From assembly GCA_964627625.1 (NCBI GenBank), contig CAZVJB010000002.1:92197-156196 (forward strand): a stretch of 64,000 bases of DNA. Reading direction: 5' to 3'. Below are positions 2,882 through 62,485 of this stretch, in pieces (position 1 is the stretch's first letter; each line of letters begins with the position of its first letter). The DNA comes from an uncultured Halobacteriales archaeon. GTDB lineage: Archaea > Thermoplasmatota > E2 > JACPAO01 > JAHFTW01. The position numbers were made by a program, and so were the translations under genes. Below the pieces are notes generated by a model, which had not been told where the DNA came from, did not search any database, and was given only the letters and a program-made list of their open reading frames with translations.

Positions 2882-3688
2882 TCACGCGGTCGCCGAACCG
2901 GTCTCGTCTCGATCGGCATGGGAAGACGTGGTCGGGGAGGACGTGGTCGGCAAGTCGATGTTGCTCCTCGTTTGCTGACGCAGCAGGCGGCGGACGAAGT
3001 CATGATCAGATAGTCCGTAGTGGCAACCCAAGCCATCGCGCTTCCTGTGCAGGTCGCCCGACTCCAACATGCGCTTCAAGTGATAGCCAAGTGTCGAGTC
3101 CGCACAGCCTAGGCTACGGCGCAGCGCGGTCCGGTTCATGGGGCCCGCAAGCAGGAGTTGGCCGATGCGTCGGGGCACGAGCCGCGAGAATCGGGCCAGG
3201 CCCGGGCGCATCTCGGCGTCATGGTTGCTGGTGACGAAGAAGCGCTTGTAGCGGCCGTCGGACAATTCCACGACCAGGCCGTCGCGTTCGAGCCGATCGA
3301 GGTGGTGACGCAATTGTCCCGCGGATGTGAGGCGTGCCGCTCGGGCAAGGCCGCGAAAGTGCACGCCCGGTTGTTCCTGCACGATGGTAAACAGTGTTCG
3401 GCCGATGTCGCGGGCTGCGGCCTCAGGTGGAGAATCGGTCTCGAAGCCACGTGGCGCAGGCAGGTCAGGTTGTCGCCCCGGGCCGTTTGGGACCATTGCG
3501 TCACCGCGTGGCTCGTTGGGAGCGGCCGCAGCCTGGAGCATGGCAGGTCCCGCAAACCATTGGCCGGTGGCCGGCGCAACGGGCCCCGGTGGGTCATCGG
3601 GGTGCGGGGGTGGAACCGGCCTGTCGGGTTCTGGGGCAGGATTTGGATCCGGTCGCGGCTCTGGGGCTTCGCTCGGGTTCGCGACCAT
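2882..3688 (-). CDS. Tandem winged-helix (wHTH) transcription regulator with a Pro-rich disordered N-terminus
   Basis: Two wHTH-like units (…TLFTIVQEQPGVHFRGLARAARLTSAGQLRHHLDRLERDGLVVEL… and …LLLAGPMNRTALRRSLGCADSTLGYHLKRMLESGDL…). It is paralogous to 59444-59998, 61928-62485 and the C-terminus of 51098-53488. Confidence 0.6.
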   Translation of the reverse strand: MVANPSEAPEPRPDPNPAPEPDRPVPPPHPDDPPGPVAPATGQWFAGPAMLQAAAAPNEPRGDAMVPNGPGRQPDLPAPRGFETDSPPEAAARDIGRTLFTIVQEQPGVHFRGLARAARLTSAGQLRHHLDRLERDGLVVELSDGRYKRFFVTSNHDAEMRPGLARFSRLVPRRIGQLLLAGPMNRTALRRSLGCADSTLGYHLKRMLESGDLHRKRDGLGCHYGLSDHDFVRRLLRQQTRSNIDLPTTSSPTTSSHADRDETGSATA

Positions 3689-3837
3689 GTATCATCCGTT
3701 GGACCCCGGACCGGGATAAGCCATGCAGCCGCGGCAAGCGCGCCCTTGCGAATGCCCGCGGAAACCGCCGAAGCTGGGTCTGCGCGGCCCGGATGCCGCC
3801 CGCAACGGCCAAAAACCCCCCCTTCGTCGGCCAAGCC

Positions 3838-4029
3838 ATGCGTACCGGCAAGATCGTGGCCCTCTGCAGCTTGGCCCTTGGCGTCCTCTTCTACCTCGCG
3901 GCGATTGCCGGCATCATGTGGCCGGCCACACCGCCTATGGACGTTGGCGTCATTTCGACGTCCGCGGTCTTCGTGCTCTTCGGGCTCCTGGGACTCATGT
4001 TGAAGGACACCAGCCCAACGAACCAGTAG
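3838..4029 (+). CDS. Small two-TM membrane protein
   Basis: 63 aa, MRTGKIVALCSLALGVLFYLAAIAGIMWP…VFVLFGLLGLMLKD. ATG confirmed at 3838. It is the internal start of a longer track ORF whose upstream part is non-protein-like. Confidence 0.4.
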   Translation: MRTGKIVALCSLALGVLFYLAAIAGIMWPATPPMDVGVISTSAVFVLFGLLGLMLKDTSPTNQ

Positions 4030-4056
4030 AATAGTAGAAGAATAGTATGATCTGGC

Positions 4057-4809
4057 TCAAAAGACGCCGCTTGTGGCGGCAATGTAGATTGCGGCAAGCG
4101 CAAGCGCTGCGGCAAACAGCTGTGCCAATGGCCGTGCCTTGAGCCCGTGCGCGGCGCGGGTGCCAAACGTCGCAGCAGCCACGGCACCGATGGCGAGCGG
4201 CACGGCGGGCCTCCAGTCAAGCCCTGCGCTCAAGCTGACTGCCGACGCAATGGCCGCGTTGGTGAACACCGCAACGAGGCTTGACCCGACGGCCGTGTGC
4301 ATCGAGACGCCCACGATGGCCAGGACGGGCACGGAAATGATGCCGCCACCAATTCCTAGTAACCGCGAGGCGGCCCCGGCCACGACGCCAAGGGCGACGA
4401 CGAGTGGCGTTCCGGGTGTGCGTGCCTCGTCATGCGGCATGTGTGCGACGAGCCGCCAGGCCGCACCCAGCATGACGACGGCGAAAAGGAGTTTCAGGGA
4501 TGGTACCGGGAGGTTTGGCGCAAGGACGATGCCGGCGGCGACGCCGACGAGGCCGCCCACGGCGAGAAGGGGTCCAAGGCGCCAGTCGACGGCGTCGCGG
4601 CGGGCGTGCTGCCACACGCCAAGCGGGGGGTGGGCCAACATTGCGGCAAGCGATATGGCGGTTGCGACGCGGAAGTCCACGCCGGCGACGTAGACCAATG
4701 CCGGCACGATGAGGACGCCGCCGCCGATGCCGAAAAGCGTCGAAAGGAACCCGGCGCCCATGCCGAGGCTGGCCAGTCCCGCGAAGGTCATGGGATCGGA
4801 CGGGTCCAC
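4057..4809 (-). CDS. TSUP-family (TauE/SafE) sulfite/anion exporter-like permease
   Basis: 250 aa and very hydrophobic. It shows the TSUP pattern of duplicated 4-TM halves with G-rich motifs (FGIGGGVLIVPALVYV …LLGIGGGIISVPVLAIV). Confidence 0.75.
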   Translation of the reverse strand: MDPSDPMTFAGLASLGMGAGFLSTLFGIGGGVLIVPALVYVAGVDFRVATAISLAAMLAHPPLGVWQHARRDAVDWRLGPLLAVGGLVGVAAGIVLAPNLPVPSLKLLFAVVMLGAAWRLVAHMPHDEARTPGTPLVVALGVVAGAASRLLGIGGGIISVPVLAIVGVSMHTAVGSSLVAVFTNAAIASAVSLSAGLDWRPAVPLAIGAVAAATFGTRAAHGLKARPLAQLFAAALALAAIYIAATSGVF

Positions 4810-5029
4810 GCGTCACCCACGGCGTGGGTCGATTGAAGCCTTGTCACACGCGCCGCTTGCGACGCATCACTCACTCAAGATGGAAGGGGCGGCCCAAAAA
4901 GCGCCGCGTCACCAGGAGAAAGTGACAGCCTTGTGGGACCACCCACCGGGCGGTTCCGTCGGCATCCCCTTCCAGGGTACAGTCCTTTCGCTGACTTCAT
5001 ACGACTTGCGTTGGGGGCTATGCACCTGT

Positions 5030-5515
5030 TTACGGCTTGGCGGCGTCGGCGTCGTCATCGGCGGCGTTGGCTCGTTGGGCGTCCATCTTGCGGACAAATT
5101 TCCGGCCTTCGTTTACCGCCGTGTCCCAAAGCAGTTCTTCGGTGGCAATTGATTCCTCGTGCAACTTGCGGGCCATCATGCGGATGGCGAGTTCCCGGGC
5201 ATTGCCTGGATAGCCCATGTCGATCAAGCGCACGATGGATTGGGCCCGGAGCGGCAACCCGGCAAGCACGACGAGGGCGGCAAGCGGAACCACGAGGAAG
5301 ACGGTCGCAATCGCGTAGGCGATAGGGAAGTATTTCGGCCAGAACAGGCCGACCACGGCCGAGCCGAGGACGGCCAAGATGCCGACGACGAGAAGGAAAC
5401 GCACGAAACGCAGCAGCCGGACAATGCGCCGCAACTTGTCCGACCACCGCCGCATCGAATCGTCCATCAGGTTCCACATGGCGCGGTACCAGGGCCTCGT
5501 ATCCACGAGCAGCAA
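5030..5515 (-). CDS. Hypothetical membrane protein (2 TM) with a basic cytoplasmic N-terminus
   Basis: 161 aa. TM hairpin LLVVGILAVLGSAVVGLFW / VFLVVPLAALVVLAGL, followed by a soluble acidic tail. Confidence 0.4.
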   Translation of the reverse strand: MLLVDTRPWYRAMWNLMDDSMRRWSDKLRRIVRLLRFVRFLLVVGILAVLGSAVVGLFWPKYFPIAYAIATVFLVVPLAALVVLAGLPLRAQSIVRLIDMGYPGNARELAIRMMARKLHEESIATEELLWDTAVNEGRKFVRKMDAQRANAADDDADAAKP

Positions 5516-5548
5516 CTCTCCGGGTCGGGGATGAACGTTCCGAAGGCG

Positions 5549-6022
5549 TCAGCCTTGCCCAATTGCGTCCCGGGCTGCCTGATCCGCGTCCGCATTCTCC
5601 AGGCGCGGCACCCAGTCGAACTGCACTTTGCGAAATTGCCCCACGAGTTTGTGCGCCTCGGCGTAAAGCGGCAGCAGATTCTCCGCCTTGACCTTGTACG
5701 TGCCGCCAAGTTGCCGAAGGATGAGTTGCGAATCGCCGCGGATTGTGACCTCATCGGCCCCCGCCGCCAGCGCGTGGCGCAGGCCCAGGATGACGCCGTG
5801 GTATTCCGCCTCATTGTTCGTGCCGCGCCCCATGTTCATCGACAAGGCTTGCCGGCGACCCCCGATGTCCAGGATGGCCCCCGCACCCATCGGCCCCGGG
5901 TTCCCGGAGCAAGCGCCATCGAACCAGACTGTAGCCTTCAACGTGGACGGGAAAGGGGCGCCGGTCTTGGGTCTGTCGTTCCTCGAAATCCCCGGCCTCC
6001 GGTTCTGGGCACGGCCGAACAA
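5549..6022 (-). CDS. rnhA: Ribonuclease HI
   Basis: VWFDGACSGNPGPMGAGAIL…NNEAEYHGVILGLRHALAAGADEVTIRGDSQLILRQLGG…VQFDWVPRLENADADQAARDA matches the RNase H catalytic DEDD core. The true start may lie about 25 codons inside the track ORF. Confidence 0.8.
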   Translation of the reverse strand: MFGRAQNRRPGISRNDRPKTGAPFPSTLKATVWFDGACSGNPGPMGAGAILDIGGRRQALSMNMGRGTNNEAEYHGVILGLRHALAAGADEVTIRGDSQLILRQLGGTYKVKAENLLPLYAEAHKLVGQFRKVQFDWVPRLENADADQAARDAIGQG

Positions 6023-6078
6023 GGGAGGCCTGGGATTGCAGGGATGCCACGGCGATTTTGATGATTCGAGGTTAATCC

Positions 6079-8277
6079 CTAACGAAGCGGCTCTTTTTCC
6101 TTCCGCTTGCGCCGTCCCTTCTTGGGCGCATCGTCTTTCGCCGGCTCCGCGTGCGCCGCGTTTGCGTCGCCCCCGCCCTTTTCCAGCATCGCTCCCGACT
6201 TCTCAAAAATGCGCCGCGCGACCTGCATGGGCTTCTTCCGGGGGCCGACGCGTTCCTCGACGTCGTGCTCCGCCTGCGCGACGCGTTCCGGCTTGGCGTC
6301 TTTCGGCAATTGGCCCGACTTCAACTGCATGATTTCGTCGCGAAGCAGGGCGGCACGTTCGAAGTCCCATGCCTTGGCTGCCGATTGCATTTCCTGCTCG
6401 AGTGATTTGATGAGCTTGTCGAATCCAGTCTTGTCGAGCGTGGCGAGTTTCTCTTTGCTGACGAGGACCGGTTTCTCCCCGAGGCGACGGCCGTCGATTT
6501 CGATGCCCTTCATGGAGCGCACCGCGGAGACCGGCGTGATGCCGTGCTGCTTGTTGTACGCAATCTGTGTCGTCCGGCGTTGCGACGTGGCCGCAATCGC
6601 CTTCGCCATGGCATCACTCATGCGGTCAGCGTACATGATGACGCGGCCGTTGACGTTGCGTGACGCCCGGCCAATCGTCTGTACGAGGGCGGTTTCGCTG
6701 CGCAGGAAACCGATTTTGTCCGCATCGAAGATTGCCACCAGGCTCACTTCAGGCAGGTCGAGGCCTTCGCGCAGGAGGTTGATGCCAACCAGGACGTCGA
6801 ATTCGCCTTTGCGGAGCTTTTCCAGGATGATTATGCGCTCCAACGTGTCGATATCGCTGTGCAGATAGGTGACTTTCAGGCCGAGGCCGGCATAGTATTT
6901 CGTGAGTTCCTCGGCCATCTTCTTCGTGAGCGTTGTGACAAGGATTCGCTCGCCGCGTTTTGCGGTCTTTGTGATTTCGCCGTAGAGGTCGTCCACCTGC
7001 CCTGCAATGGGGCGTACGATGACTTCGGGGTCGATGAGGCCTGTCGGGCGAACCACGGCTTGAACGCGCAATTCTTCATGCTCGGCCTCATACGGCCCGG
7101 GCGTCGCGCTGGTGAAGACGCATTGCTTGAACTTGCGCTCCCATTCGGGGAACTTGAGCGGCCGGTTGTCGAGCGCCGAAGGCAGGCGGAAGCCGTACTG
7201 GATGAGGGTTTCTTTGCGCATGCGGTCGCCATTGTACATGCCGCGCACCTGCGGAACACTCACGTGCGATTCGTCAACGATCAGGAGGTAGTCCTCCGGG
7301 AAGTAATCCATGAGACACGCGCCAGGGTCGCCGCGCGGACGGCCGGAGAGAGGTTGGCTGTAGTTCTCGATGCCGTTGCAGTAGCCGATTTCGCGCAGCA
7401 TCTCGATGTCGAAGCGCGTGCGTTGCTCGAGCCGTGCCGCCTCCAGGATTTTTCCTTGCGTGCGCAATTCGGTGAGACGGTCCTTGAGTTGATCCTGGAT
7501 GCGCAAGATGGCGGCCTCAAGTTGATCGGGAGGCAAGACGAAGTGCTTGGCGGGGAAGATGGTCATCGCCTGGTACGTCGCGATGCCGTCGGCCGTCAGG
7601 GAATGCACGCGCTTGACGGACTCGATTTCATCGCCCCACAAGGCCACGCGGATGGGATGCTCGTCCCCTGGCGGCAGGATGTCGATGGTGTCGCCGCGCA
7701 CGCGGAAGGTTCCGGGTTTGAGTTCGGCGTCGTTGCGTTCGTAGTAGATGTCAACCAGGCGTCCCACCAGGGCGCGGCGTTCCATTTTCTGGCCGGCCTG
7801 CAGCAAGACGTTGGCGCTGCGGTAGTCGTCGGGCGAACCCAAGCCATAGATGCAGGAAACGGAAGCGACCACGACGACGTCCTTGCGCGTCATGAGTGCC
7901 TGTGTGGTCGCGTGGCGAAGTTTCTCGATCTCCTTGTTGACGTCGGATTCTTTGGCGATGTAGGTGTCCGATTGCGGGACGTACGCCTCTGGCTGGTAGT
8001 AGTCGTAGTAGGAGACGAAGTATTCGACGGCGTTCTTGGGAAAAAAGGCCCGCATTTCCTCGTACAATTGTGCCGCGAGAGTCTTGTTGTGCGAGATGAT
8101 GAGCGTCGGCTTCTGCAACCGCGTAATGGCCTGTGCCATGATGTACGTCTTTCCGACCCCGGTTACGCCCTGGAGTGTCACGAAGCGCTTGCCATCTCGG
8201 ACCGCTTGCACCACGGCGTCGATGGCGGGCCCCTGGTCGCCCGCGGGCTCGAACGGCGCCTCCAACTCGAACGGCAC
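6079..8277 (-). CDS. uvrB: Excinuclease ABC subunit B
   Basis: 732 aa. Walker A TLQGVTGVGKTY, helicase motifs, the UvrB beta-hairpin region and a C-terminal UVR-like segment. It has an unusual K/R-rich C-terminal tail. Confidence 0.95.
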   Translation of the reverse strand: MPFELEAPFEPAGDQGPAIDAVVQAVRDGKRFVTLQGVTGVGKTYIMAQAITRLQKPTLIISHNKTLAAQLYEEMRAFFPKNAVEYFVSYYDYYQPEAYVPQSDTYIAKESDVNKEIEKLRHATTQALMTRKDVVVVASVSCIYGLGSPDDYRSANVLLQAGQKMERRALVGRLVDIYYERNDAELKPGTFRVRGDTIDILPPGDEHPIRVALWGDEIESVKRVHSLTADGIATYQAMTIFPAKHFVLPPDQLEAAILRIQDQLKDRLTELRTQGKILEAARLEQRTRFDIEMLREIGYCNGIENYSQPLSGRPRGDPGACLMDYFPEDYLLIVDESHVSVPQVRGMYNGDRMRKETLIQYGFRLPSALDNRPLKFPEWERKFKQCVFTSATPGPYEAEHEELRVQAVVRPTGLIDPEVIVRPIAGQVDDLYGEITKTAKRGERILVTTLTKKMAEELTKYYAGLGLKVTYLHSDIDTLERIIILEKLRKGEFDVLVGINLLREGLDLPEVSLVAIFDADKIGFLRSETALVQTIGRASRNVNGRVIMYADRMSDAMAKAIAATSQRRTTQIAYNKQHGITPVSAVRSMKGIEIDGRRLGEKPVLVSKEKLATLDKTGFDKLIKSLEQEMQSAAKAWDFERAALLRDEIMQLKSGQLPKDAKPERVAQAEHDVEERVGPRKKPMQVARRIFEKSGAMLEKGGGDANAAHAEPAKDDAPKKGRRKRKEKEPLR

Positions 8278-8349
8278 ATCACTTGCAGGACCGAAGCGAA
8301 CAAAAGCGAAGGGGTGGGGGCGGCGGAACTACCGGTCGGCGTATTGGGG

Positions 8350-8673
8350 TTACCGGCGCTTTGCGCGGCCCTTCTTGGCCGGCTTGGGCGTTTTTGGTTT
8401 CTTCGGAGCCTTCGCTTTCTTTGCCGCCTTGACGGTTGGCCTGCTTTTCTTCGCCGCGACCTTCTTGGTCTTCTTGGCAACCGGCTTTTTGGCGGGTCGC
8501 TCCAAGGCTTTCCTAGCCTTTTTGGCAACCGGCTTGCGCGGCACGGCGGGTTTGCGAGGCGACCGCTTTGCCACGGGAGGCAATGGCGGCCGCTCAGTCC
8601 ATGGCGCGGCAGGAGCATTCGGCATCGGCTTGCGGCGGAAAAGGCGCAGCGCCATCAACCGGAACACGCGCAA
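8350..8673 (-). CDS. Lysine/alanine/proline-rich basic protein (histone H1-like / AKP-repeat DNA-binding tail protein)
   Basis: …PVAKRSPRKPAVPRKPVAKKARKALERPAKKPVAKKTKKVAAKKSRPTVKAAKKAKAPKKPKTPKPAKKGRAKRR. It lies directly upstream of uvrB and is co-oriented with it. The start is uncertain. The antisense ORF 8036-8836 is hydrophobic junk. Confidence 0.35.
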   Translation of the reverse strand: MRVFRLMALRLFRRKPMPNAPAAPWTERPPLPPVAKRSPRKPAVPRKPVAKKARKALERPAKKPVAKKTKKVAAKKSRPTVKAAKKAKAPKKPKTPKPAKKGRAKRR

Positions 8674-9087
8674 AGCAAGATATCACCGCTTCGAAGAGGA
8701 AGCGCCGATTTCCGATGGAAAAAACGCCCTATTGTGGGCAAAAATACGGGATGGCGGACCGGAACAACTCGCGCCCCAAACCCTCGATGAGGGCCGGGGT
8801 GGGTGGTGGTCGGTGGTCGCAAGAAATCCGGCATAGCCGGAGCCCCGGACCGCCCGCACATGGTGCGGAGGCAATCGCGCCTCGTCTCCCAATCGTATTC
8901 GGGCGCAACCCGATATATACCTCGCCAATTGGGTCGCTTTGCGGCCCCTTTTCCGGGAGAAACCATGCCCCAGCAACCGGGCCGCCGGGGCCGGCCGATT
9001 TGGCCGCAAACCTGCCCCTCCAGGAGTCAGCTTAAAAGGTGCAGCCACAAAGCGTAAATCACTTCCACGACCCAATCCACCTCAACC

Positions 9088-9333
9088 ATGAACGAACCAA
9101 ACGTCCAACCGCACCCGGTCCCCGCCTCTGTGCAGGCCGTGCTGAACACTCTCAACCACCACAAACCCATGACGGGCAAGCAGTTGCGGGAAGCCACCGG
9201 CCTCCCCCGCCGCACCATCTACACGGCCCTGCGCCGGCTGCGCGAGATGGGCCTTCTTGAGGAACAAGCCAGCCTGCGCGATACGCGGCAGACCTACTTC
9301 TGGGTCCACGAAGCAAAACCCCAGCCAAACTGA
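9088..9333 (+). CDS. Small winged-helix transcription regulator
   Basis: 81 aa. KPMTGKQLREATGLPRRTIYTALRRLREMGLLEE… is a typical single wHTH (MarR/TrmB-like) protein. Confidence 0.6.
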   Translation: MNEPNVQPHPVPASVQAVLNTLNHHKPMTGKQLREATGLPRRTIYTALRRLREMGLLEEQASLRDTRQTYFWVHEAKPQPN

Positions 9334-9529
9334 AACGGACCCCATGCGGTTTTCTGCGGCCGCGAACTGTCGCCGCCTGGCGCGATGATCTAGCACATCG
9401 TCGGTGAATGATGATCGGATTGGACTTTGGTGAGCGCCGTCCCCTTGCGCATTCTGCGCGCGATTGACACAGCAAAACTACATCCGGAGAGCCGGCTAGG
9501 CAGCCTTCAGGCCTGGCCGTCTACCTGCC

Positions 9530-10096
9530 GTGTTGCCATTTCTTAGCCTGCTTGTTGTTGCTTCCCTCGCTGGATGCGCGACACCACAATCGTCTGCCGA
9601 GGGCGTGGACGACTCCTCTGACCAAGCCGCAACGAGCCGCCACGCCGCGCCTCGAGAAGTTCCTGTTGATGTCATGGTGCAGCAAACCATGACGCCAACA
9701 CCGACGGTCTGCGACCCAGCCACTCCGAAGGAATGCGCCACCTACCATTACACTGGAACCATGTACTTCGCAGGCACTTGGAACGGTACAGCGCCGTACG
9801 TCGGGTACATCTTCTACAATGAAACCACGGCCCGCACGGACTTCGTGGACCAGCCCATCATGTTCACCGGCACGATGGCGGGGTGCGGCACAGGCTCGAT
9901 TCACCTGAGCGCAATCGGCTACACGGACAACGTGCCAACCACCGAAGGCTTCCATCTGCACGGGAATCTCCGGGACCTCGCGGGGACCGCGTCGGTTGGA
10001 ATGGGACACGTCGTCGACATCGACTTCCCGTTCGACGCATTCCTTGGCGCCTCGGGCTTCAATTTCCATCTGACTGGCACCATGCTGTGTATGTGA
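9530..10096 (+). CDS. Secreted lipoprotein with one copy of a novel ~180-aa Cys/Gly/Thr-rich domain
   Basis: Lipobox LLVVASLAGCATP. The domain carries the motif …FTGTMAGCGTGSIHLSA…. It is paralogous to the three repeats in the next gene. Confidence 0.6.
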   Translation: MLPFLSLLVVASLAGCATPQSSAEGVDDSSDQAATSRHAAPREVPVDVMVQQTMTPTPTVCDPATPKECATYHYTGTMYFAGTWNGTAPYVGYIFYNETTARTDFVDQPIMFTGTMAGCGTGSIHLSAIGYTDNVPTTEGFHLHGNLRDLAGTASVGMGHVVDIDFPFDAFLGASGFNFHLTGTMLCM

Positions 10097-10164
10097 CCTG
10101 GCCAATTGGCCTGGCTTGTACCTAGGACTTCTGCGGCGCCGGTGGCGACGGCCACTCCCTCCTG

Positions 10165-11862
10165 TTGAGCCGACAATTCGGCGTAGACTGTACAGAGCAA
10201 AGCTATTTTTATTTGCCATTCTCACCGCCGCTCATGTCGATTCGCTTGAAGCTTGTGCTACCCTGCGTAGGCGTCCTGCTCGTTGCCAGCCTTGCGGGTT
10301 GCGCGACCCCCAAATCAGCCGCTTCCGAAGGTACCGGGCCTGCGGTGGACATTCCGACGGTCAACGGCCAAATCCGGCCAGACCTCATCGGGACCTTGGC
10401 CATCCCCATCACCGGCGCATGGACCTCGGAAGGCGACTTGCGGGCGGATCAATTCACCTGCGCCCCGGAAAAGCCCGGCGGTTGCGAGTACTACTCGACG
10501 ATTTTCCTCGACTTCACGGGCACGTTTACTGGCAGGATGACGGACATTTTCCACTTCCATTGGGCGGGGTCGGGCAGCACGGTCGATGCCCAGGCGCTGC
10601 GGCTCGTCACGGGATCGTTTGCCGGGTGTGGCTCGGGCACGATGAGTATGCGCATCGACGGCCCCGCCTCGATTGACCCGAATCCGGACAAGCCCGGCAG
10701 CGTCCACATGAAAGAACCCTTGATGTCGATGGTGCCGGGCTCGACGTCGACAGGACTCGCCGCCGTCGTAGACGCCCAGGTCACGCTCGAATTCAACCTG
10801 ACTGGGGACTCCATCCATGATGGCACAATCAACGGGGCCATATGGTGCCGAATGGCCGCCGTGCCGGACACTAGCCCGAGCCACGAGGGTGCGGTGCCCA
10901 TCGAGGTCAACGCCAAGTTCACGACAGATGGCATCCTGCTTCCTCATTCGGTTGCGTGCAATCCACCGACCAGTCCGCAAGAGTGCGAATTGTATGAGAC
11001 CCAGTATGTGGACTACACTGGGACAATGAATGGCACCCTTACGGATCCGGCGCACGCCCACTCCAACGGCGATGGCACCCTCGAAGCCGATGTCCTGCGT
11101 CCCTTCACCGGCTCCATCGCTGGCTGCGGCTCGGGTACGCTGGTCCTCCACCTCAAGGGAACAACGGGAAAACTCGAACCCAATCTGAGCGCGCCCGGCA
11201 CGTTGCACCTCGTGGAACCAAAAATGACGCTGTTCCCCGGTTCGACTACGGCCGGCTTTGCGGGCGTCGTGGACGCTAATTTGACGAACGACTTCATCAT
11301 CACTGGCCCAGCGTCTGGCTACGGGACCATCTCCGGGACCATCTGGTGCAAGACCGCCGCCGTAAACGAAACGCCGGCCGATGCCGCCGCAGCTCGAATC
11401 ATCCCTGTTGCAACCAAGTTTGAAACAGATGGCTACGCCGTCCTCAGCTCCATCGCTTGCGCTCCCACCAATCCTGGCGGATGCGAATTTTCCGGCACCG
11501 AAATGTGGTGGGTCGTGACTGGCACCTTCAACGGCACGGTCTTCGACCGCTTCCACGCCCACGGCCAGCCGGACGGAACGTTTACTGGCCCAGCTGAGCG
11601 GACGTTCACCGGCTCCATCGCGGGTTGTGGTTCGGGAACGCTGACGCTGACCGGCACACTCGTGGTCAACTTTGGCGAACCGGACACCACATATCCAGGC
11701 TACGTAACGACGCACGAAATCTTGTCGCTCGTACCAGGCTCGGGGACGGCCGGCTTTGCGGATTTGGTCGATGCCCAGATTACCGCCGACTACGCAGTGT
11801 CGGGGACTGGCAACGGGTCGACCAAGGGCGCAACCATGGCCGGAACGGTCACGTGCCGCTGA
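10165..11862 (+). CDS. Lipoprotein with three tandem copies of the same novel domain
   Basis: Lipobox LLVASLAGCATP. Three repeats each contain FTGS(F/I)AGCGSGT(M/L)… and …PGS(T/G)(S/T)(T/A)G(L/F)A(A/G/D)(V/L)VDA(Q/N)(V/L/I)T. Confidence 0.65.
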   Translation: MSRQFGVDCTEQSYFYLPFSPPLMSIRLKLVLPCVGVLLVASLAGCATPKSAASEGTGPAVDIPTVNGQIRPDLIGTLAIPITGAWTSEGDLRADQFTCAPEKPGGCEYYSTIFLDFTGTFTGRMTDIFHFHWAGSGSTVDAQALRLVTGSFAGCGSGTMSMRIDGPASIDPNPDKPGSVHMKEPLMSMVPGSTSTGLAAVVDAQVTLEFNLTGDSIHDGTINGAIWCRMAAVPDTSPSHEGAVPIEVNAKFTTDGILLPHSVACNPPTSPQECELYETQYVDYTGTMNGTLTDPAHAHSNGDGTLEADVLRPFTGSIAGCGSGTLVLHLKGTTGKLEPNLSAPGTLHLVEPKMTLFPGSTTAGFAGVVDANLTNDFIITGPASGYGTISGTIWCKTAAVNETPADAAAARIIPVATKFETDGYAVLSSIACAPTNPGGCEFSGTEMWWVVTGTFNGTVFDRFHAHGQPDGTFTGPAERTFTGSIAGCGSGTLTLTGTLVVNFGEPDTTYPGYVTTHEILSLVPGSGTAGFADLVDAQITADYAVSGTGNGSTKGATMAGTVTCR

Positions 11863-11887
11863 GGGCGCTGGCGGACAGCAAGAGCGG

Positions 11888-12400
11888 CTAGGTTTTGCTC
11901 GGAGCCGCCGGCGCCGGCGGCTTCCACGGCTTCGACTTCACCGGCGATCCGCAGACGATGCATTCGTCGCGCTTCGGCATGGTCTCGTACCAGCGGCCGC
12001 AACCCATGCAACGCGGGCGGAAATCCAACTGGGTAGAGATTCCCGTCGTGTTCACCGTCTGAGTTGGCACGCGCAGGCGATTGGCCACGTCGAGGAGAGT
12101 GTAGTCGTCGGTAATCAGCGTCGCAGACAGGTCGAGTGCGAGGGCCGCGAGGCTAATGTCGGCAACACTCAAGCGACCGAGATTGCCGGCAGCCATGGCG
12201 GTGGTCTCGACGCGGTCGACGGAATCCTGGTTGGCGCTGCGGACTTGCAGGCCGAGGGTGATCCAGCCTTCGTAGCGGCGGGCATCCTTGCCGCCAGGCG
12301 AGACCTCCGCGGCAGCCTCGGGCGTCGTGGCCCAGGAGGACGAGCGCGGTGGCTCCTTGCCGCCCAGGAGTAGGGAAGTGTCGAGGACCAGCCAGGCCAC
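11888..12400 (-). CDS. Nob1-like PIN-domain endonuclease with a C-terminal zinc ribbon
   Basis: PIN start …WLVLDTSLLLGG… with acidic residues …ITDDYTLLDVAN…. C-terminal CMGCGRWYE…CIVCGS four-Cys ribbon. The architecture matches archaeal Nob1. The start is probably a GTG around 12400. The track ORF N-extension is non-protein-like. Confidence 0.6.
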   Translation of the reverse strand: MAWLVLDTSLLLGGKEPPRSSSWATTPEAAAEVSPGGKDARRYEGWITLGLQVRSANQDSVDRVETTAMAAGNLGRLSVADISLAALALDLSATLITDDYTLLDVANRLRVPTQTVNTTGISTQLDFRPRCMGCGRWYETMPKRDECIVCGSPVKSKPWKPPAPAAPSKT

Positions 12401-12563
12401 GGCATCGCAAAGTGGCCAAGGCCCTAAGCCTTGTGGGCGGAAACAGCCCGGCCTCGCGTACGCCGGCGGGGCGGCGTCACGGCCTCGGTGGGCCACGTTC
12501 GGATGGGTGCGCCTGCCCGGCGGCCGCCCCACAACTTTTCAAGCGTGGGGCGGTCGCCGCCCC

Positions 12564-53527: not shown

Positions 53528-56500
53528 TTGGTTGGCGTACGCCGACCGGTGTTCATCGTGGGAAACCCAACGCAATCGTCGCCAGCCTACACGCAATACT
53601 CGCTCGCCGTCGTCGCGGCCTTCGTGGGCGTCGCTGCCATCGCGCTTGTCCTGTCGCACAACGCCTCGGCCGGCGGGACCGGGTACCAGATTGCAACGGA
53701 TTTGACAAACGATCACACCGACAGCATGCAGAACGCCGAGCTGATTCGTCTCGGCGCGTCGTCAGACGCAACAAACATTTACTTCTGGCTCAAAGTCGGT
53801 GCCGACTCACCCACTTATGACCCAACGCCCTCCGGCCCCAAAGATTTGATGCTATCCGTGGACATGGTCACGCCAGCGAATGTGCCGCAATATGTCAGGG
53901 AAATGTATACGATCTGGGGCTCATGGTTCCAGACCTATACCGGCTTGGCAGTCGGCAGTAGCTGGGAGTACGGGAATAGTAATCAATACCAAAACACCCA
54001 AGTCAGCTGGGTCTGCAACGAAGCGAAATTCACGATTGCTCGCAACCAGTTCACGGGCAGCCCGCCAGCAGATGGCACCGTCTTCACGCGCCTGATGGCA
54101 ACGGCCCAACCAGGCTTCACAACGCCCGCCGTCGTGCTAGACACCATGGGCAGCAGGCCACCCCCCGCACCCCAACCCGCACCTCCCCCCCGGAACCGGC
54201 ACGTGGGAGGTCGGGCAGAACGGCCAGATGTGGCAGAATGCGCCCGTGATAGGCACCGCCACTGCAATCGGAGACAACATGGTCCGAATCACTTGGACTG
54301 CCACGGACAATGGGGCGCAGCCAACGACCGTGTACAGGATTTATCGCAGCGTAGCCGGCGGCGCCTTCTCGCTGTTTACGACGGTGGGCGCGGCAGCCAC
54401 GTCCTACGACGACGTGAACCTGGCCTCAGGCACCTCGTATGCGTACAAGGTCGCGGCCGTCAATTGCCCACAACTGCCCGCACAGGCGTCGGCCCCGCCA
54501 GCAGGCGAGCCCGCCTACGTGGGTGGGGAGAGCCTGCGCAGCGCCGCCGTGTCCGTCACCCCGGACTTCAATCCGATGGCCCCGACAAGTTTTGCCGTTG
54601 GTGAGCCCACAGCAACAACGCTGACACTAACGTGGACCGCAGCCAGCGCGGATTGCCCGGCCGCCACATGCACGCCAGCCGGAACTGGCGCCAGCGGAGT
54701 GCAGGGCTACGCCATGTACCGCGGCGCCAGCGGAGCCGAAACGTTCGTCGCCAACCTGCCCAGCAGCTCCGCCTGCAGCACGACGCCCTGCACCTACACG
54801 GACATCGACCTAACCCTCGGCGCGACCTACTGCTACTACCTCAAGGCCTACGACGGCTACGCTAGCGGGCCGAATACGAGTCCCGCCACATCCGAATCGT
54901 GCGGCGTTCCAGCAACTGCCCCAGCCGCCGTTACCGACACGTTCGTCGTGGACGAAGATATATTGTTCTCCAGTTCCGCTTGCGCCGCTGGCATGCCAGC
55001 CGCGACGGGCGGACCCTACAAAGGCGTCCTATGCAACGACCAGGACATGGCCAACGACGCAATCGAAGGCATCCTCATCACAAGCCCGGCCCAAACAAGT
55101 CCCGGCGGCTCATTTGCATGGGACGCGGACAACAAAGGCGGCTTTACGTACAGGGCTAAAACGGACTACTGCGGTGGCACCGGAGACAGCTTCCAGTACC
55201 AACTCAAGGACGTAACCACCAACACTCTGCTGAATACGGTCACCGTCCAACTCAACATCGCCTGCACCCCGGTTGCCGTAGCGGATCTATTTGCGGCCAC
55301 CATCAATACGGAGTTTTCGTCGCCGCCATGCCCGGCCAACACGCCCTCCGCGACAGGCGGCACCTACAAGGGTGTTCTGTGCAATGACCAAGATACCGCC
55401 AACCACGCGATTCTGGCCCTCCTGGTATCCTCTCCGGTAAACACGAGTCCTGGCGGTTCATTCGCGTGGAACGCCGACAACAAGGGCGGCTTTACGTACC
55501 AAGCCGCAACCGACTACTGCGGCGTTGCCGGAGACAGTTTCCAGTACCGATTGAAGGACGTAACCGCGAACGCCTTCCTGAATACCGTCACCGTGCAAAT
55601 CGACATCAGCTGCACCCCCAACTTGCCACCAGTTGCCGCCTGCAGCATCGTAACGGCGGCACCCTACTGGCCAGACGAAGTCGTGGCTTTCAGCTCCACG
55701 GGTTCATCTGACTCTGATGGCACAATCACTGCTTGGGCCTGGACGTTCACGGGTGGCTCGTCGCCGGACACGACCATCGCGTCCCCGACGGCCAGTTGGT
55801 CCTCGTCGGGCCCGTTCGCGGTCACGCTAACCGTGACGGACGACGACGATGCACCGAGTGCACCGGCATCATGCGGCATCACGATCACGAATACCGCCCC
55901 GACGGGGAATCCGAATGAGTACGTCGCCATCAAGGATGGCTTGTTGGACACCCTCAATCAAGGCCGTCCCAGCGTCTTGGCCAATGACGTGGATACGGAA
56001 GGCAACCTCAACGCCGTGCAGTTCCCCCTCTGCGCGCCGCTGCCTGCCGGGACGGGAACCATTGACGACTTCACGTACGTGGGGCCGCAGGCGGGCCACT
56101 TCGTCTACACTCCCCCTGCTGGCTTCGTTGGGGACACATCGTTTGGCTACAAGCCGAAGGACGCCTTGGGCCTGGTTGGCGCGTCCTGCGTCACGGTGAA
56201 TATCCACGTGCAAGTCAACCGCTCCCCCGTATCGGCGTTCTCCGCAGACCGGTCCACGACGCGGGTTGGCGAGCCCGTCGTCTTCGGTGACGCTTCCAGC
56301 GATCCCGACGAGGGCGATGCCGTCGTGGCTTGGGCCTGGAGCTTCGGCGACGGCGGATCCGGCACGACGTCGAGTCCCATCCACATCTTTGGCACCACCG
56401 GCTCCTTCCAGGCATGCTTGACGGCCACGGACACGTGGGGCAAGATTGGGCCGAAGGCCTGCCGCACCATCACCGTGATTGCGGCGACTGCAGGCACATC

Positions 56501-57308
56501 CGCACCACCCGCGCCCCCGAGCCAGCCGCCGAGCGACCCGGCCGACCCGGATGCATCCAAGCCGCCGCTCGGCGTGGACGCGGGAGCTGACCAAACCGTA
56601 ACCGAATCGGCGATCACCAAGCTGCAAGCAACCGTCACGGGCGGGTCGCAAACAGTGGCGTGGGTGCAAACGTATGGGCCGCGCGTGGACTTGACGCAAA
56701 CAGGCACGTCGGCGTCGTTCGTCGCCCCCGCTTTAACGGGATCGCGCATCGTCTTGTACTTCGAACTTCACGCCCAAGACGGCGAACGCGTCGGCGCGGA
56801 TGGCGTCATGATTGAAGTCGAATCCAATGAGCCAACGCCGGCCGCACAAGTCGCGGGCGACGCAACGGTGGCGCCTGGCGCCGTGGCCATGCTGGATGGT
56901 ACGTCATCCTCTGGCGGAAACGGCAACTCCTTGACGTACAAGTGGACGCAATGGGAAGGCCCAGCCGTCACGCTCGTCGGTGCCGACACGCCGATGGCCA
57001 CCTTCACCGCGCCCGACGAAGCGGCCACGCTGCGCTTCGCCCTGGAAGTAAGTGACGGCCACTCATCGAGCCTCGCCATCCAGACCATCGTGGTCGATGC
57101 CTCGGCGGCACTCGGCGGCGAACCGGAGCCGCTTCCATCCGCCTCCGTCCCGACCGTGGATCCCGATGGCTCGCCGGCCACGGCGACGCAGGCGCCAAGC
57201 GGATCCAACGTGGCCGCTATCGCCGCCGCGGCCGTAGTCGCGTTGCTAGGCGTCGGGGGGGCTTTCATCGGCCTGCGCCATCTCCGGGCAAGGCCGGAAC
57301 GTACCTAA
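53528..57308 (+). pseudogene. Giant (~1260 aa) surface protein (signal/TM, FN3, tandem Ig-like, PKD and VCBS-like domains, C-terminal TM anchor), split by a frameshift in a C7 homopolymer near 54185-54191
   Basis: Track ORFs 53528-54604 and 54228-57308 overlap. Upstream of 54228 the second frame reads …LPPGTGTWEVGQNGQMWQNAP… with no Met. Removing one C from the ccccccc run fuses …PQPAPPP to GTGTWEVGQ…. Downstream are FN3-like domains (…TTVYRIYRS…SYAYKVAAVN), two ~100-aa tandem repeats (GGSFAW(D/N)ADNKGGFTY…CG…GDSFQY(Q/R)LKDVT…), PKD motifs (WAWTFTGG…, WAWSFGDGGSG…), and C-terminal AAIAAAAVVALLGVGGAFIGL followed by RHLRARPERT. Confidence 0.55.
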
Positions 57309-57974: not shown

Positions 57975-59447
57975 ATGAAGCCCCTGCCCTTGCTCTTGGC
58001 CGTTCTGCTTTTCATGGCTGCAAGTGCAGCCGCCGCAAGCGATTTCACGTTCGATTCTGCCGCAGGGCACGGCCCGCTCCAATTGACACCGCAGGGTTTC
58101 GCGCTGCTGCATACGACGGCCAGCGTCGATTGGACCCTGACGGCCACTTCGATGCGAATCAAGGTCGTGGATGACCGCGAAGACAACGCCATCCCGGACC
58201 CAGCCAATCCGGACGACAGCCTGGTTTCGGTGTTCAACCGGACGACGACGTACCACGATTTCGCGGCGGCGACGCTGCATTGGGTTTCCCTTTCGAATCC
58301 GGTCTCAATCATCCAGGGTCCCGGCATCCTTGCCGAAAACGTCAGCGGTCAACTTGCCCTGACCACGGTGTCGCCAAGCAGCATCGAACAGTCGCACTAC
58401 GTTATGGCCACTCCAGTCGGTGCTCCCGAACTGCAATACGATGTGCTCGTACCCGCGTCGCTGCGAGTCAAAGCGACCGCCGTGGCGGACATCCTTGGCA
58501 ACGTCACTCTGTACTCGTGGAGCAACGACATCCAAGTGCGGCATTCCGGCGGAGCCTTCGAGCTGCGCACCGGCAAGTACACCGACATGCCGGTCACGCA
58601 AGGAAGCCTGCGATCGCGGCACTACGTGCACGCGTTTCTTGAACTGCGCACCGCCAGGGCCAACCTCGCCATTCCGGCGGCGGCCTTCTACGCCGAAGGC
58701 CTGCAAGTCGAAAGCCATGGTATCCTGCAATTCTCCAACCTGACCGGAGAACTCCCCGGCCCTACGGGTTTGGCGACGGCCACAGGGGGAATCGTGACCG
58801 CCTCGGCGGGGACGTTTGCCCTGTCACCGACTGGAACCGGCATCGGCGGCACTGTACTCATTGCACCTGAAGCCGTCGCTGGCACAACTGCGCGGCTTCC
58901 AGGCACCGCGCTTCCTGGCGGGGTATGGCTTGCGTTGAGCGGCATGCTGTTTGTTGGCGTGGTCGCCGCGCCAAGCGTCCATGGTCGCCGGGTCCGCCAA
59001 CGGGAGGCCGCCACATGGCTTGGGTTTAGGGACGACCGGGCAACAGCGTATAGCAATTGGGCCGCACGCGCCGACAACCAGGGCTGGAACCACGCCGCAG
59101 CCCTGCTGTTCTGGCGGGCTACTCGAAACAGCCCCACGAGTCCGGAGTTGCGATGCGAGTACGGCGTCCTCCTGCGGCAAAGCGGCCGTCCCAAACGGGC
59201 CTTGCGCCAGCACGTCCTCGTCGGGGAAGTCCTGGCGCGTTCGTTTGATCCAGGCTGCGGCGCCCTCAATGCCTACAGCGCTAGCCTGTGTTGCGCCGCC
59301 CTTGGGAAGGATGGGGCGGCGCTTGAGTGGCTGCAAGCCGCAATCGAGGCTGATCCGGGTTTCACTGAAACGGCCCTTAAGGAGCCCCGACTGCGACGCC
59401 TCAGAGCACACCCCGATTATCCCGCCATCGTCGGGGCCATCGCATGA
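57975..59447 (+). CDS. Type-I membrane receptor-like protein: signal peptide, ~310-aa ectodomain, one TM, cytoplasmic helical (TPR-like) domain
   Basis: Signal MKPLPLLLAVLLFMAASAAAAS. TM VWLALSGMLFVGVVAAP followed by HGRRVRQRE. Cytoplasmic …YSNWAARADNQGWNHAAALLFWRATRNSP…LQAAIEADPGF… is helical-repeat-like. Confidence 0.6.
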   Translation: MKPLPLLLAVLLFMAASAAAASDFTFDSAAGHGPLQLTPQGFALLHTTASVDWTLTATSMRIKVVDDREDNAIPDPANPDDSLVSVFNRTTTYHDFAAATLHWVSLSNPVSIIQGPGILAENVSGQLALTTVSPSSIEQSHYVMATPVGAPELQYDVLVPASLRVKATAVADILGNVTLYSWSNDIQVRHSGGAFELRTGKYTDMPVTQGSLRSRHYVHAFLELRTARANLAIPAAAFYAEGLQVESHGILQFSNLTGELPGPTGLATATGGIVTASAGTFALSPTGTGIGGTVLIAPEAVAGTTARLPGTALPGGVWLALSGMLFVGVVAAPSVHGRRVRQREAATWLGFRDDRATAYSNWAARADNQGWNHAAALLFWRATRNSPTSPELRCEYGVLLRQSGRPKRALRQHVLVGEVLARSFDPGCGALNAYSASLCCAALGKDGAALEWLQAAIEADPGFTETALKEPRLRRLRAHPDYPAIVGAIA

Positions 59448-59998
59448 CGTCGCGGTCGCGTGACGGCGATGAGGCGCGCGACTTGTTTGCAGTTCCAACC
59501 CGGCCCCGCGCCGCGCACAGAATCGTTGGCGTCGATGGCCTTACTGAAATCCAGCGGCAGGCCTATGATTTCGTCGTGCTCAATCCCGGCGTGACCATCC
59601 AGGAAACGGCCGTTCACATGCGAAGCAGCCACTCCACGGCCACGTACCACTTGTTGGCCTTGACGCGCCTCGGACTCGTGGAGGCCGTCCGGGCGGGACG
59701 CCAGCTTCGCCACTTTCCCTTGCCCCGCGGCTACTCACGTGAACTCTACCTGAAAGTCTTGAACCGCGATCCCAAGCGGGCCGCCTTGGTGCATTTCCTG
59801 CGCGACGCGCCCGTGGCGGGCATGACCATCAACCACATTGCCGGGAAAACGGGGCTCCCTTTCGGCTTCGTGAAGCGCACGCTTGAGCAATTGGAACGAA
59901 TGCACTTCGTCCATCTACGGCGACGCCACTACCGGTACCGCGTCGAGGTGACGCGCGAATTGCTTGCCGGTCGCGCCGACGACCTTTTTCCCGCGTAG
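59444..59998 (+). CDS. Tandem wHTH transcription regulator, overlapping the stop of the receptor-like gene (ATGA)
   Basis: …EIQRQAYDFVVLNPGVTIQETAVHMRSSHSTATYHLLALTRLGLVEAV… and …RAALVHFLRDAPVAGMTINHIAGKTGLPFGFVKRTLEQLERMHFVHL…. Same family as 2882-3688, 61928-62485 and the tail of 51098-53488. Confidence 0.65.
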   Translation: MTSRSRDGDEARDLFAVPTRPRAAHRIVGVDGLTEIQRQAYDFVVLNPGVTIQETAVHMRSSHSTATYHLLALTRLGLVEAVRAGRQLRHFPLPRGYSRELYLKVLNRDPKRAALVHFLRDAPVAGMTINHIAGKTGLPFGFVKRTLEQLERMHFVHLRRRHYRYRVEVTRELLAGRADDLFPA

Positions 59999-60330: not shown

Positions 60331-61053
60331 GTTAACTATCTTGTGCCGGCAATGTAAGCCGGGCTGCGGCTTTCTGAAAAACACGGACCAGCCTCCAGGA
60401 CGAAAGCCGGCCCCGCGCGGTACCCCCCACAAATTCCTGTCGCGCGGGCGTGGCCGACGTCGGATGGCATCTGCCGCTGCGAAGGACCGGTCCCCTGGGC
60501 TGATTCTGACCAGGATTCCTTCGCCTTGTTTCCTCCGTTGCGTATCCCGCCGCGCCGTTTCGTCCTGGTCGGCCGTCGTGCCGGGCCCGCCGCACTTGAC
60601 TCCTCGGGGCCCGCGTAGTCCCGCCTGCATCGTGCGTCGCGTCCACCGGCCTTATATGGAAATCTGGAGTCGGCGCCGCCAACGCTAGGCTTGGCATCGA
60701 TTCGAAGTCCCGTATCCACAAGCAATGGTTTGTGCACCAAAGAGTGATACTTAGCCCCGTATTCCTCTTAGTGCTAAACAAAATATTTTGGGTGGGGGAG
60801 GTTCGGAACAGGGCTTCGGGGGGTTCCGCTTTTTTCTTGCGGACTAGACGTAGCGGACGGCTGTGAGGCCCCACTAGTGTGGGGCCATACGGACGTACGC
60901 GAAGGTATAGGCCAGCAAGGGAAAGAGAGTGGAAACACGCGTGTGCGCGGGTTTCAGAAACTTCACAAACAAAAGGAATCTTGTTTACGCAGTCGAAGAC
61001 CACGGAATCATTGGCCAAACCAATTTCTTTCTCCAGTTGGACGGGGGTGATTC

Positions 61054-61737
61054 TCATAGTAGCCTCCTTTGGACCAGTAGTGGTTCGGGTGGCATAGGTG
61101 TTTCCACTTCCTTCCGTGGATCCGGGAAGGCCGGGTCCAGTCGGTCGGGTCGTCCGTCCCAGCGTACGGGTATGAATCGGTTGTCGATGTGTCGCAGCTG
61201 CGTCGGTTTCGACCAGCCGGGCACCCAGCAGGCCATCATGTAGCCCGCGCCGTCGGTTTGCCCGTTGGCTGTGAAGCCCGGACGAGCCGGGAGGGGGTAA
61301 GCGGCGGCGGCAGGGAAAATGCGCCAGAACCGCTCGTAACGCGTCTGACCCTCAAAGAAGTTCAACCGCAAGAGAAACGCCAGGAACCATCCAGGGTTGG
61401 CTTGGCATTTGATTCTGGTCTGGACGAGTCGCGGCGACGAGTTGCGGTAAGCTGCTGGGAGGTGTGCCATAGTCCGCCCTCCATGGCCCGCCCCCCATAC
61501 GCCGCCATCAGGAGACACGGCCCGATGGGGCGGGCTGATGGCACGGACTATTGGCATGGCTGCGCCAATGACTTGGCCATCGACGTGGCCAACGAGTTGC
61601 GGTAGTCCGTTGGCAGCCGTTATGCGGCATTTGGGCAGGTGTGCCATAGGCCGCCCTCCATGGCCCGCCCCCCATACGCCGCCATCAGGAGAAACCACTG
61701 TTGGGCGCGCAAGGGTGGCGGCCATCATTCCCACCAC
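61054..61737 (-). CDS. Hypothetical protein whose N-terminal half is encoded by an imperfect direct DNA repeat (VSPDGGVWGAGHGGR(P/T)MAHLP twice); it may instead be a non-coding repeat element
   Basis: The C-terminal half is protein-like (…NFFEGQTRYERFWRIFPAAAAYPLPARPGF…HIDNRFIPVRWDGRPDRL…). The N-terminal half coincides with the 58-bp direct repeats at 61461 and 61638. Confidence 0.3.
   Translation of the reverse strand: MVGMMAATLARPTVVSPDGGVWGAGHGGRPMAHLPKCRITAANGLPQLVGHVDGQVIGAAMPIVRAISPPHRAVSPDGGVWGAGHGGRTMAHLPAAYRNSSPRLVQTRIKCQANPGWFLAFLLRLNFFEGQTRYERFWRIFPAAAAYPLPARPGFTANGQTDGAGYMMACWVPGWSKPTQLRHIDNRFIPVRWDGRPDRLDPAFPDPRKEVETPMPPEPLLVQRRLL
61461..61695. repeat. 58-bp imperfect direct repeat, two copies 177 bp apart
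   Basis: ggtgtgccatag(t/g)ccgccctccatggcccgccccccatacgccgccatcaggaga(c/a)ac appears at 61461 and 61638, each preceded by cgagttgcggta. Confidence 0.6.
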
Positions 61738-61927
61738 CTGGCCAGCGGAACGGTCAGGGCCGCAAGAACTTCCTCGGCGAAGGCTTGCATGTAGGAGACG
61801 GGCATGTAGTGCGCCTCTTCGTGGTCCAACAAGTAGTCCGTCGCGTACATGCGCACGAGGCCGGGCTCGTGCGGGCCAGGGCCGTGCTTTGCGGCGAAGG
61901 CGTTTGCGACCAACTTCGGGTTCGGCC

Positions 61928-62485
61928 TCACGCCGATACCTCCGCGGCTAAAACGGCCGCAATCGTGGGAGCGACGTCCCGTACCGACCAGGCCGGGCGA
62001 GGCGTCACGTGGTAGACCACGCGGGGGCCGAAGGTGCGGCGCGTCACTAGGCCGACGGCCGTCAAGCGGCCCAAGGCGTGCTGGGACGATGAACGCGGCA
62101 AAGCAAGCGCATCAAGAACGGCGCTTTGGAAGACCGGCGCAAGCCGCTCCACCACACGCAGCACGCCGTACTGTTTCGGCGTCAGATTAGCCATGGCGGC
62201 CAGTCGGTTTGCAATCTCAGGCGGCGGCCGAGAACCCGCAAAGTGCAACAACCGAACGTCCTGGCGCGCCGTCCAGGCCAAGCCAAACCGCGCAAGCAGC
62301 CGGACATGATGCGCCAAGCAACCGGTCGAAATATTCGTTGCCGCCGCCAAGCGACGAAACCCCAGACCCGGCTGGGCAGCCAACGTGTCCAATATCAATT
62401 GTCGACGCGGATGTGCCGCCACGTTGCCGGCGCGGACGCGTTCCATCAGAACACCGCCCGACCCGGGCAAGCCGGATGCGGGCAA
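61928..62485 (-). CDS. Tandem wHTH transcription regulator (fourth paralogue)
   Basis: …RRQLILDTLAAQPGLGFRRLAAATNISTGCLAHHVRLLARFGLA… and …ANLTPKQYGVLRVVERLAPVFQSAVLDALALPRSSSQHALGRLTAVGLVT…. Confidence 0.6.
   Translation of the reverse strand: MPASGLPGSGGVLMERVRAGNVAAHPRRQLILDTLAAQPGLGFRRLAAATNISTGCLAHHVRLLARFGLAWTARQDVRLLHFAGSRPPPEIANRLAAMANLTPKQYGVLRVVERLAPVFQSAVLDALALPRSSSQHALGRLTAVGLVTRRTFGPRVVYHVTPRPAWSVRDVAPTIAAVLAAEVSA

Follow-up and report, generated by a model that had tools for sequence, protein, structure and literature searches.

Four genes encoding proteins with two consecutive winged helix-turn-helix (wHTH) domains, here termed A, B, C and D, lie within 64,000 nucleotides (nt) of DNA from an uncultured archaeon (the window; contig CAZVJB010000002.1, positions 92,197–156,196). 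A preliminary description of this DNA took them for a lineage-specific expansion in which each copy is associated with membrane or surface genes and may be the dedicated partner of a membrane sensor. The locus poses the question of whether these genes are recent local copies with a common task or old relatives put to different uses. The analysis described here makes it fairly probable that A–D are sequence-specific, DNA-binding transcription regulators of a single-chain, two-wHTH ArsR/SmtB type, deployed in four ways.

All four open reading frames (ORFs) are present where they had been placed, and only the start of B differs. A (2882–3688, − strand) encodes a soluble tandem-wHTH protein of 268 amino acids (aa), B (50963–53488, + strand) a predicted single-pass transmembrane protein of 841 aa with a C-terminal tandem wHTH, C (59444–59998, + strand) a soluble tandem-wHTH protein of 184 aa, and D (61928–62485, − strand) a soluble tandem-wHTH protein of 185 aa counted from a TTG codon. 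The start previously given for B falls on an internal Met (51098); in public gene calls, the ORF begins at 51023 (P0003, 821 aa). The position of the start codon of A is uncertain. In D, alignment with orthologs makes an ATG at 62446 (Met14) a more likely start than the TTG; the 185-aa form was not found in the protein collection searched. Transmembrane or hydrophobic segments are absent from A, C, and D, and B alone combines a transmembrane helix with a DNA-binding domain.

In a four-sequence alignment, A, B, C, and D are 22–27% identical, and the residues invariant in all four are a PG dipeptide plus one His and one Leu in the recognition helix. The sequence pattern by which they had been grouped is approximate: when it is anchored on PG, A matches 5 of the 15 specified positions, B 11, C 8, and D 13, the low count in A being caused by a one-residue insertion. 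The N-terminal wHTH domains resemble each other in every pair (z = 6.7–10.3 against shuffled sequences). Pairwise similarity of the second wHTH domains, measured against shuffles, is weak (A–B, z ~5; A–D, z 3.4–4.0), and none was seen between the second domain of C and those of the others. Profiles of ortholog groups (alignment A4 for A-type proteins, A7 for B-type tails, A6 for C-type, and A5 for D-type) were compared by hhalign, and all six pairs are collinear from the first wHTH across the linker into the second, along 131–148 columns. Probabilities are 99.8% for B-type versus A-type (E 9e-28), 99.7% for B-type versus D-type (E 1e-25), 99.1% for B-type versus C-type (E 1e-18), 98.2% for A-type versus D-type, 96.9% for D-type versus C-type, and 84.5% for A-type versus C-type. 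Homology therefore extends over both wHTH domains, as had been proposed, and a likeness confined to a generic first domain does not describe these proteins.

The structural evidence agrees with this conclusion. A second wHTH located behind a helical linker is indicated by Pfam matches in the second half of each protein (HTH_20/HTH_5, MarR_2, or TrmB). The AlphaFold2 model of A, computed with 30 homologs, contains two complete winged-helix domains (residues 88–243), with a block-mean predicted local distance difference test score (pLDDT) of at least 94 from residue 101. The α1–α2–α3–αR–β–β–α5 fold by which ArsR/SmtB proteins are recognized was found. When a hidden Markov model (HMM) built from the four proteins was run against the six-frame translation of the window, A–D were the only two-domain matches, and a single-wHTH ORF at 9088–9333 was matched in addition.

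The same HMM places the four proteins in a very large family. A word-seeded search with the tail of B recovered P0001 alone, and not even B, and an exhaustive profile search over 1.84 billion representative proteins was used instead; at a threshold of E ≤ 1e-3 it yielded 11,416 representative clusters, of which 4,971 also pass E ≤ 1e-10, and the 150 best are matched across both domains. Relatives that consist of the module alone (~30% identity) occur on haloarchaeal plasmids, where they bear the names of ArsR/SmtB or wHTH regulators, and ArsR/SmtB is the usual annotation of family members. Together, the thousands of clusters and the haloarchaeal members indicate a family that is both large and old. 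Each copy in the window has far closer relatives in other organisms, namely P0004 for A (E 2e-75), P0048 for B (E 3e-111), P0085 for C (E 5e-39), and P0079 for D (E 8e-29). Because the copies are only 22–27% identical and closer relatives occur elsewhere, the idea of recent local paralogs is not upheld, and the four genes are best regarded as anciently diverged members of one widespread family, with no local event behind them.

Membrane anchoring is common in this family. Among the best 150 matches, 71 have a hydropathy-detected transmembrane helix just upstream of the module, which in 59 of the 71 lies behind an ectodomain of >100 aa, and many more members of 550–840 aa have the module at the C-terminus. 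Membrane-anchored relatives of 700–800 aa (P0028, P0034, P0036, and about 70 more; alignment A3) have a common ectodomain of ~500 aa, for which a Pfam scan of 75 large members gave no family match; many of those inspected are strongly acidic, which suggests halophiles. PF24266 (HTH_HVO_0163_N), which covers the first domain only, matches A and 75/75 of the large membrane-anchored relatives tested. Searches of the PDB by sequence gave single-wHTH matches only (best, 5duk). HVO_0163 of Haloferax volcanii, which gave PF24266 its name, is known only as an ArsR-type protein that increases after hypochlorite stress (PMC10294847); in the literature, no other paper was found for HVO_0163, and none that mentions PF24266.

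B is the member of the set in which the module is joined to the membrane. Pfam matches and hydropathy predict a signal or anchor segment (residues 42–71), a Kelch propeller, a PKD domain, four TSP3 repeats, a transmembrane helix (residues 641–671, nt 52883–52975), and the tandem wHTH (residues 689–841, nt 53027–53485). The second transmembrane segment is followed by the basic stretch RIAQANARGPTVSKTKT, which fits the positive-inside rule and a cytoplasmic module. P0048 and P0039, the closest relatives of B, have PKD, TSP3, transmembrane helix, and module in the same order, and members of this subgroup, B included, have a shortened second wing. A transmembrane transcription regulator has been defined as a protein with a predicted transmembrane region and a DNA-binding domain in one chain, of which there are about four per archaeal genome (PMC10269533). 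As predicted from its sequence, B fits this published definition, and its layout is common in the family; A, C, and D are not members of the class.

Possible targets adjoin B on both sides. A large surface protein is encoded at 53528–57308 (+), starting 40 bp downstream of B. It is present as two ORFs, 53528–54604 with the N-terminal anchor and 54228–57308 with the fn3, Big_9/cadherin-like, and PKD domains and the C-terminal transmembrane segment, jointly of ~1250 aa; frame comparison puts the break near 54180–54230, in a Pro-rich stretch. The two probably represent one gene split by a frameshift, which may be genuine, may mark a pseudogene, or may stem from an error of assembly. Upstream of B, on the opposite strand, lies a gene for a NosD-like β-helix protein. 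By their adjacency, the surface-protein and NosD-like genes are candidate targets of B.

C is coupled to a membrane protein encoded by a separate gene. The protein p490 (57975–59447, +; 490 aa) has a signal peptide, an ectodomain of ~285 aa without a known family, a transmembrane helix (residues 311–337), and a cytoplasmic tetratricopeptide repeat (TPR) domain (NF047558, 37.5 bits; cut-off, 32). Its stop codon overlaps the start of C in the sequence ATGA (within 59431–59460). C itself has Pfam matches to TrmB, MarR_2, and HTH_24. In 3/3 full-length relatives (L024, L025, and L026, all from metagenomes), the gene immediately preceding the C-type gene encodes a p490 homolog (33–47% identity), and the gene upstream of the C relative P0085 overlaps it too. 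The association of C with a membrane protein is thus borne out by both the overlap and the conservation of the pair, and C is the sole case in the window that fits a predicted dedicated partner of a membrane sensor as a separate gene. The p490 ectodomain was also considered as a detached ectodomain of the fused family, which was rejected (hhalign probability, 0.1%; no phmmer matches).

A heads a conserved Thermoplasmatota operon in which it is followed by a gene for a flippase-like protein of the MOP (multidrug/oligosaccharidyl-lipid/polysaccharide) superfamily and then by a family-2 glycosyltransferase (GT2) gene. Orthologs of A, found at 19 loci with 44–68% identity, occur only in uncultured metagenome-assembled genomes, nearly all with a Thermoplasmatota or related archaeal label. 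They form a tight group with the motifs PGIHFR...SxGQLRHHLDRL and NRTELRRxLGCADSTLGYHL, after which the proteins end in Pro-rich tails that vary. In A, the module corresponds to residues 88–243 (about nt 2960–3427) and the N-terminus is Pro-rich and disordered; a PHROG scan gave no match for A. The second gene (1490–2872, −) starts 9 bp downstream of the A stop codon on the same strand and encodes a 460-aa polytopic membrane protein. Neither Pfam nor NCBIfam gave a match to its sequence, and its AlphaFold2 model (pLDDT 91.4; predicted template modeling score, 0.88) has the fold of the MOP superfamily (Wzx/MurJ/MATE-like), with Foldseek matches to MATE (6fhz), WzxE (9g9n), and MurJ (6nc6) at TM-scores of 0.6–0.67. 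In JGI and NCBI records, its homologs are named as O-antigen/teichoic acid export membrane proteins (the JGI name) or lipopolysaccharide biosynthesis proteins. The GT2 gene (523–1527, −; PF00535, E 1e-21) is third. Of the 18 loci with room for it, 15 have the MOP gene immediately after the A-type gene, and GT2 is next in 12 loci.

The association of A with a small membrane protein is weak. This 62-aa protein with two hydrophobic segments is encoded at 3841–4029 (+), divergently from A (3838 in the preliminary description), and its gene was detectable beside A only in the close relatives L002, L003, and L004. Canonical ArsR/SmtB sensing sites are a CXC motif in α3 or an Asp/His cluster in α5. 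A CXC site was sought in A-type proteins and none was found, and A, when examined, had no canonical ArsR sensing site. Cys195, located before or at the beginning of the second recognition helix, is kept in 29/30 A-type proteins, and Cys222 in 19/30. Several of the nearest structural neighbors of A are thiol-based sensors. Cys195 might, speculatively, make A responsive to thiols or a ligand, which we offer as a lead.

The neighborhood of D is of another kind. An ORFan of 132 aa (62547–62945, −) lies directly upstream, has no Pfam or PHROG match, and is 42.5% identical over 80 aa (E 9e-16) to a 90-aa ORF in L043 that sits two genes upstream of the D ortholog P0118. Downstream, the ORF at 61054–61737 (−) includes a fragment that matches a phage DNA methyltransferase (phrog_799, E 7e-10), the only PHROG match obtained for D and its ORFan neighbors; it contains a 62-nt direct repeat (61457–61518 and 61634–61695, 95% identical), and this region may be a degraded mobile element. 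A Logan contig assembled independently from run SRR6868923 stops within the repeat. The two D-type orthologs that were examined have neighbors of mobile-element type: ArdC-N, MPTase-PolyVal, and ParB-HTH genes in L021, and DUF5131 and DUF6119 in L043. A match of the D region to the mobile element that surrounds the L021 ortholog was also considered and was discarded when only D matched; one small ORF was later found in common with L043. D-type genes were not found in IMG/VR viral contigs or in PLSDB plasmids, and no tRNA that could mark an integration site was found in the window. D has matches to MarR_2 (34.2 bits) and PF24266, and is a putative stand-alone regulator that forms part of a mobile-element-like or ORFan gene set. 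In archaeal "dark matter" islands, wHTH regulators associated with viruses or plasmids are common (PMC4158269).

Accordingly, only part of the partner proposal stands. Membrane or surface genes accompany B and C. No membrane link was found for D, among soluble ORFans and a methyltransferase fragment, and the small membrane-protein gene proposed for A gives way to the MOP protein and GT2 as its conserved neighbors. A dedicated membrane partner is supported for C, and trivially for B, where the two are fused, and not for A or D.

A mechanism can be proposed for each of the four uses. With its two wHTH domains, a single chain would provide both of the reading heads that ArsR/SmtB proteins normally gain through dimerization. 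The module would be free in A and D, tethered to the membrane in B, and partnered with a membrane protein in C. A probably controls the putative glycan-export unit formed by the MOP-type flippase and GT2. In B, the ectodomain is predicted to face outward, with one helix across the membrane and the module in the cytoplasm, from where it would pass a signal to the adjoining surface-protein genes, which it probably controls either from the membrane or after release. The cytoplasmic TPR domain of p490 probably binds or sequesters C, which would be the soluble half of a two-gene unit.

It is unlikely that the four genes instead arose in a recent expansion specific to the lineage, with every member serving as the dedicated cytoplasmic partner of an adjoining membrane sensor. 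The fusion of B to an ectodomain and the pairing of C with a membrane protein suit such an origin, but the conserved neighbors of A include no sensor, and D lies among soluble ORFans and has orthologs in mobile-element-like contexts. Clustering also speaks for it: B, C, and D lie within 11.5 kb, similar arrays occur elsewhere (L027, four genes in 9.3 kb), and about 275 kb of related Thermoplasmatota loci around A-type genes contain one two-domain copy beyond the seed gene, so that three extra copies in 64 kb are a rough 13-fold excess (Poisson P ~0.002), the flanks of A not being a random sample. The low identity between the copies, each with far closer orthologs in other organisms, nevertheless tells against recent duplication. 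A chance grouping of generic ArsR/MarR wHTH proteins without a common second domain is highly improbable: the weak or absent pairwise similarity of the second domains, especially that of C, and their differing Pfam names (HTH_20, MarR_2, TrmB) are what such a grouping would give, whereas hhalign runs collinear through the linker and second domain in every pair of ortholog groups, and the four-member HMM retrieves thousands of proteins, with the two-domain span matched in the best 150.

A different function for the module has also been weighed, in which it is no transcription factor but a tandem winged helix that tethers DNA or proteins, as in ScpB, ESCRT-II, and Cdc6/Orc1, the membrane-anchored forms holding DNA or a protein partner at the envelope. 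Over its full length, the A model is matched best in Foldseek by such non-regulator tandem winged helices (ScpB, the winged-helix domains of SelB, and ESCRT-II), at poor TM-scores of 0.2–0.3, and a ParB-HTH gene lies near a D-type ortholog; at the level of sequence, however, the matches are to HTH_5, HTH_20, MarR_2, and TrmB, and A occupies the place of first gene in its operon, which is typical of autoregulated repressors. We regard a purely tethering role as quite unlikely. The preferred interpretation, that A–D are two-wHTH transcription regulators of ArsR/SmtB type, has these Foldseek matches against it as well, together with several other observations. No DNA-binding, target, or signaling experiment was found for any family member. 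With a PF24266 cut-off of 31 bits, A scores above it (55.6), B (27.6) and D (29.1) fall just below, and C has no match; scores with the NCBIfam ArsR/SmtB model (NF033788, HTH_metalloreg) are 33.2, 26.1, 25.9, and 36.8 bits for A–D, all far short of the 55 required. In L002 and L003, which hold the closest relatives of A, no MOP or GT2 gene lies beside the A-type gene, and nothing in the sequence links C and p490 to B as a "split" form, the p490 ectodomain showing no similarity to those of the fused members.

If A–D are such regulators, they differ in several respects from the systems they resemble. The ArsR/SmtB repressors SmtB, CzrA, BigR, NolR, HlyU, and SqrR are homodimers of ~100-aa chains, whereas here each chain has two wHTH domains, many family members are membrane-anchored, and A-type proteins are without the CXC or α5 metal site. 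Pairs of a membrane protein and a regulator invite comparison with anti-sigma and sigma factors. p490 and C resemble these in their translational coupling, their conservation as a pair, and the protein-binding TPR domain by the membrane; the likeness is one of analogy, as neither protein is related in sequence to sigma or anti-sigma factors. In ToxR and CadC, the wHTH is N-terminal and cytoplasmic and the C-terminal domain is periplasmic, and ArnR likewise has its wHTH at the N-terminus, with transmembrane helices at the C-terminus. Unlike these proteins, B has its tandem wHTH at the C-terminus, preceded by a signal that looks cleavable and by a large ectodomain on the N-terminal side. Transmembrane transcription regulators are nonetheless established in archaea (PMC10269533), where ArnR is membrane-bound (ArnR/ArnR1; PMC6396743), and B and most of its large relatives come under the published definition of such regulators, a class that includes ToxR and CadC.

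ArsR-like wHTH proteins and transmembrane transcription regulators are thus already known; A–D are new members of known regulator kinds, of moderate interest, and the gain lies in annotation and in the choice of targets, with no new principle. They are an entry point to signal transduction in uncultured Thermoplasmatota, which is essentially unstudied and for which the window yields concrete candidates: A with a glycan-export operon, B beside large surface proteins, and C with a membrane TPR protein. Thousands of relatives share the membrane-anchored layout, and characterization of one would annotate many. A bolder and still tentative suggestion is that a very large and unstudied family of receptor-like single-pass transcription factors may be a main route of outside sensing in Thermoplasmatota and related archaea; its layout would comprise a signal peptide, a variable ectodomain, one transmembrane helix, and a single-chain "pseudo-dimeric" tandem wHTH. 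If this is true, p490 with C (split) and A and D (soluble or mobile-element forms) would derive from the same module, and the window would show four evolutionary states of one archaeal signaling module side by side.

Arrays and other arrangements of family genes were observed outside the window. L027, a 9.3-kb metagenome contig with a G+C content of 71%, carries four consecutive same-strand tandem-wHTH genes (3194–8843), of which three encode a signal, an ectodomain, and a transmembrane helix, and one encodes a soluble protein. L033, L035, and L039 (e.g., L033, 2–12599) share a syntenic archaeal cluster that contains a short transmembrane-anchored tandem-wHTH gene, two TrmB-type regulators, unassigned genes, a DUF2070 membrane protein, and a PKD-repeat protein of 1200–1400 aa.

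Other features of the window concern its origin and its remaining genes. A full-length archaeal signal recognition particle RNA (RF01857, 162.6 bits) at 27920–28229 (+) fixes the domain of the source organism. The G+C content is 60–70% across the window, with no compositional break at any of A–D, and exact copies of A, B, and C are also present in an NCBI contig of 197,997 bp and in Logan assemblies of run SRR6868923. The protein encoded at 43907–45712 (+) has two ABC_tran domains and an ABC_tran_Xtn linker, which is the ABC-F layout; ABC-F proteins are reported to be almost lacking in archaea, and this one may be worth a look. A 107-aa ORF at 8350–8673 (−) is very basic and rich in Lys, Ala, and Pro, has no Pfam match, and resembles histone-H1-like or AKP-repeat DNA-binding proteins. 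The fifth wHTH gene of the window (9088–9333, +) encodes an 81-aa single-wHTH protein (TrmB/MarR_2/HTH_27) without the two-domain arrangement; it is 93% identical in L004 and is kept near UvrB in L002 and L003. L004 is syntenic with window positions 1–13,500, and its UvrB is 91% identical. A malate/lactate dehydrogenase ORF of 406 aa (12288–13508, +) has Ldh domains that begin only at residue 94, and its N-terminal extension is 60% identical to that in L004, against 87% for the rest; its start codon may have been miscalled.

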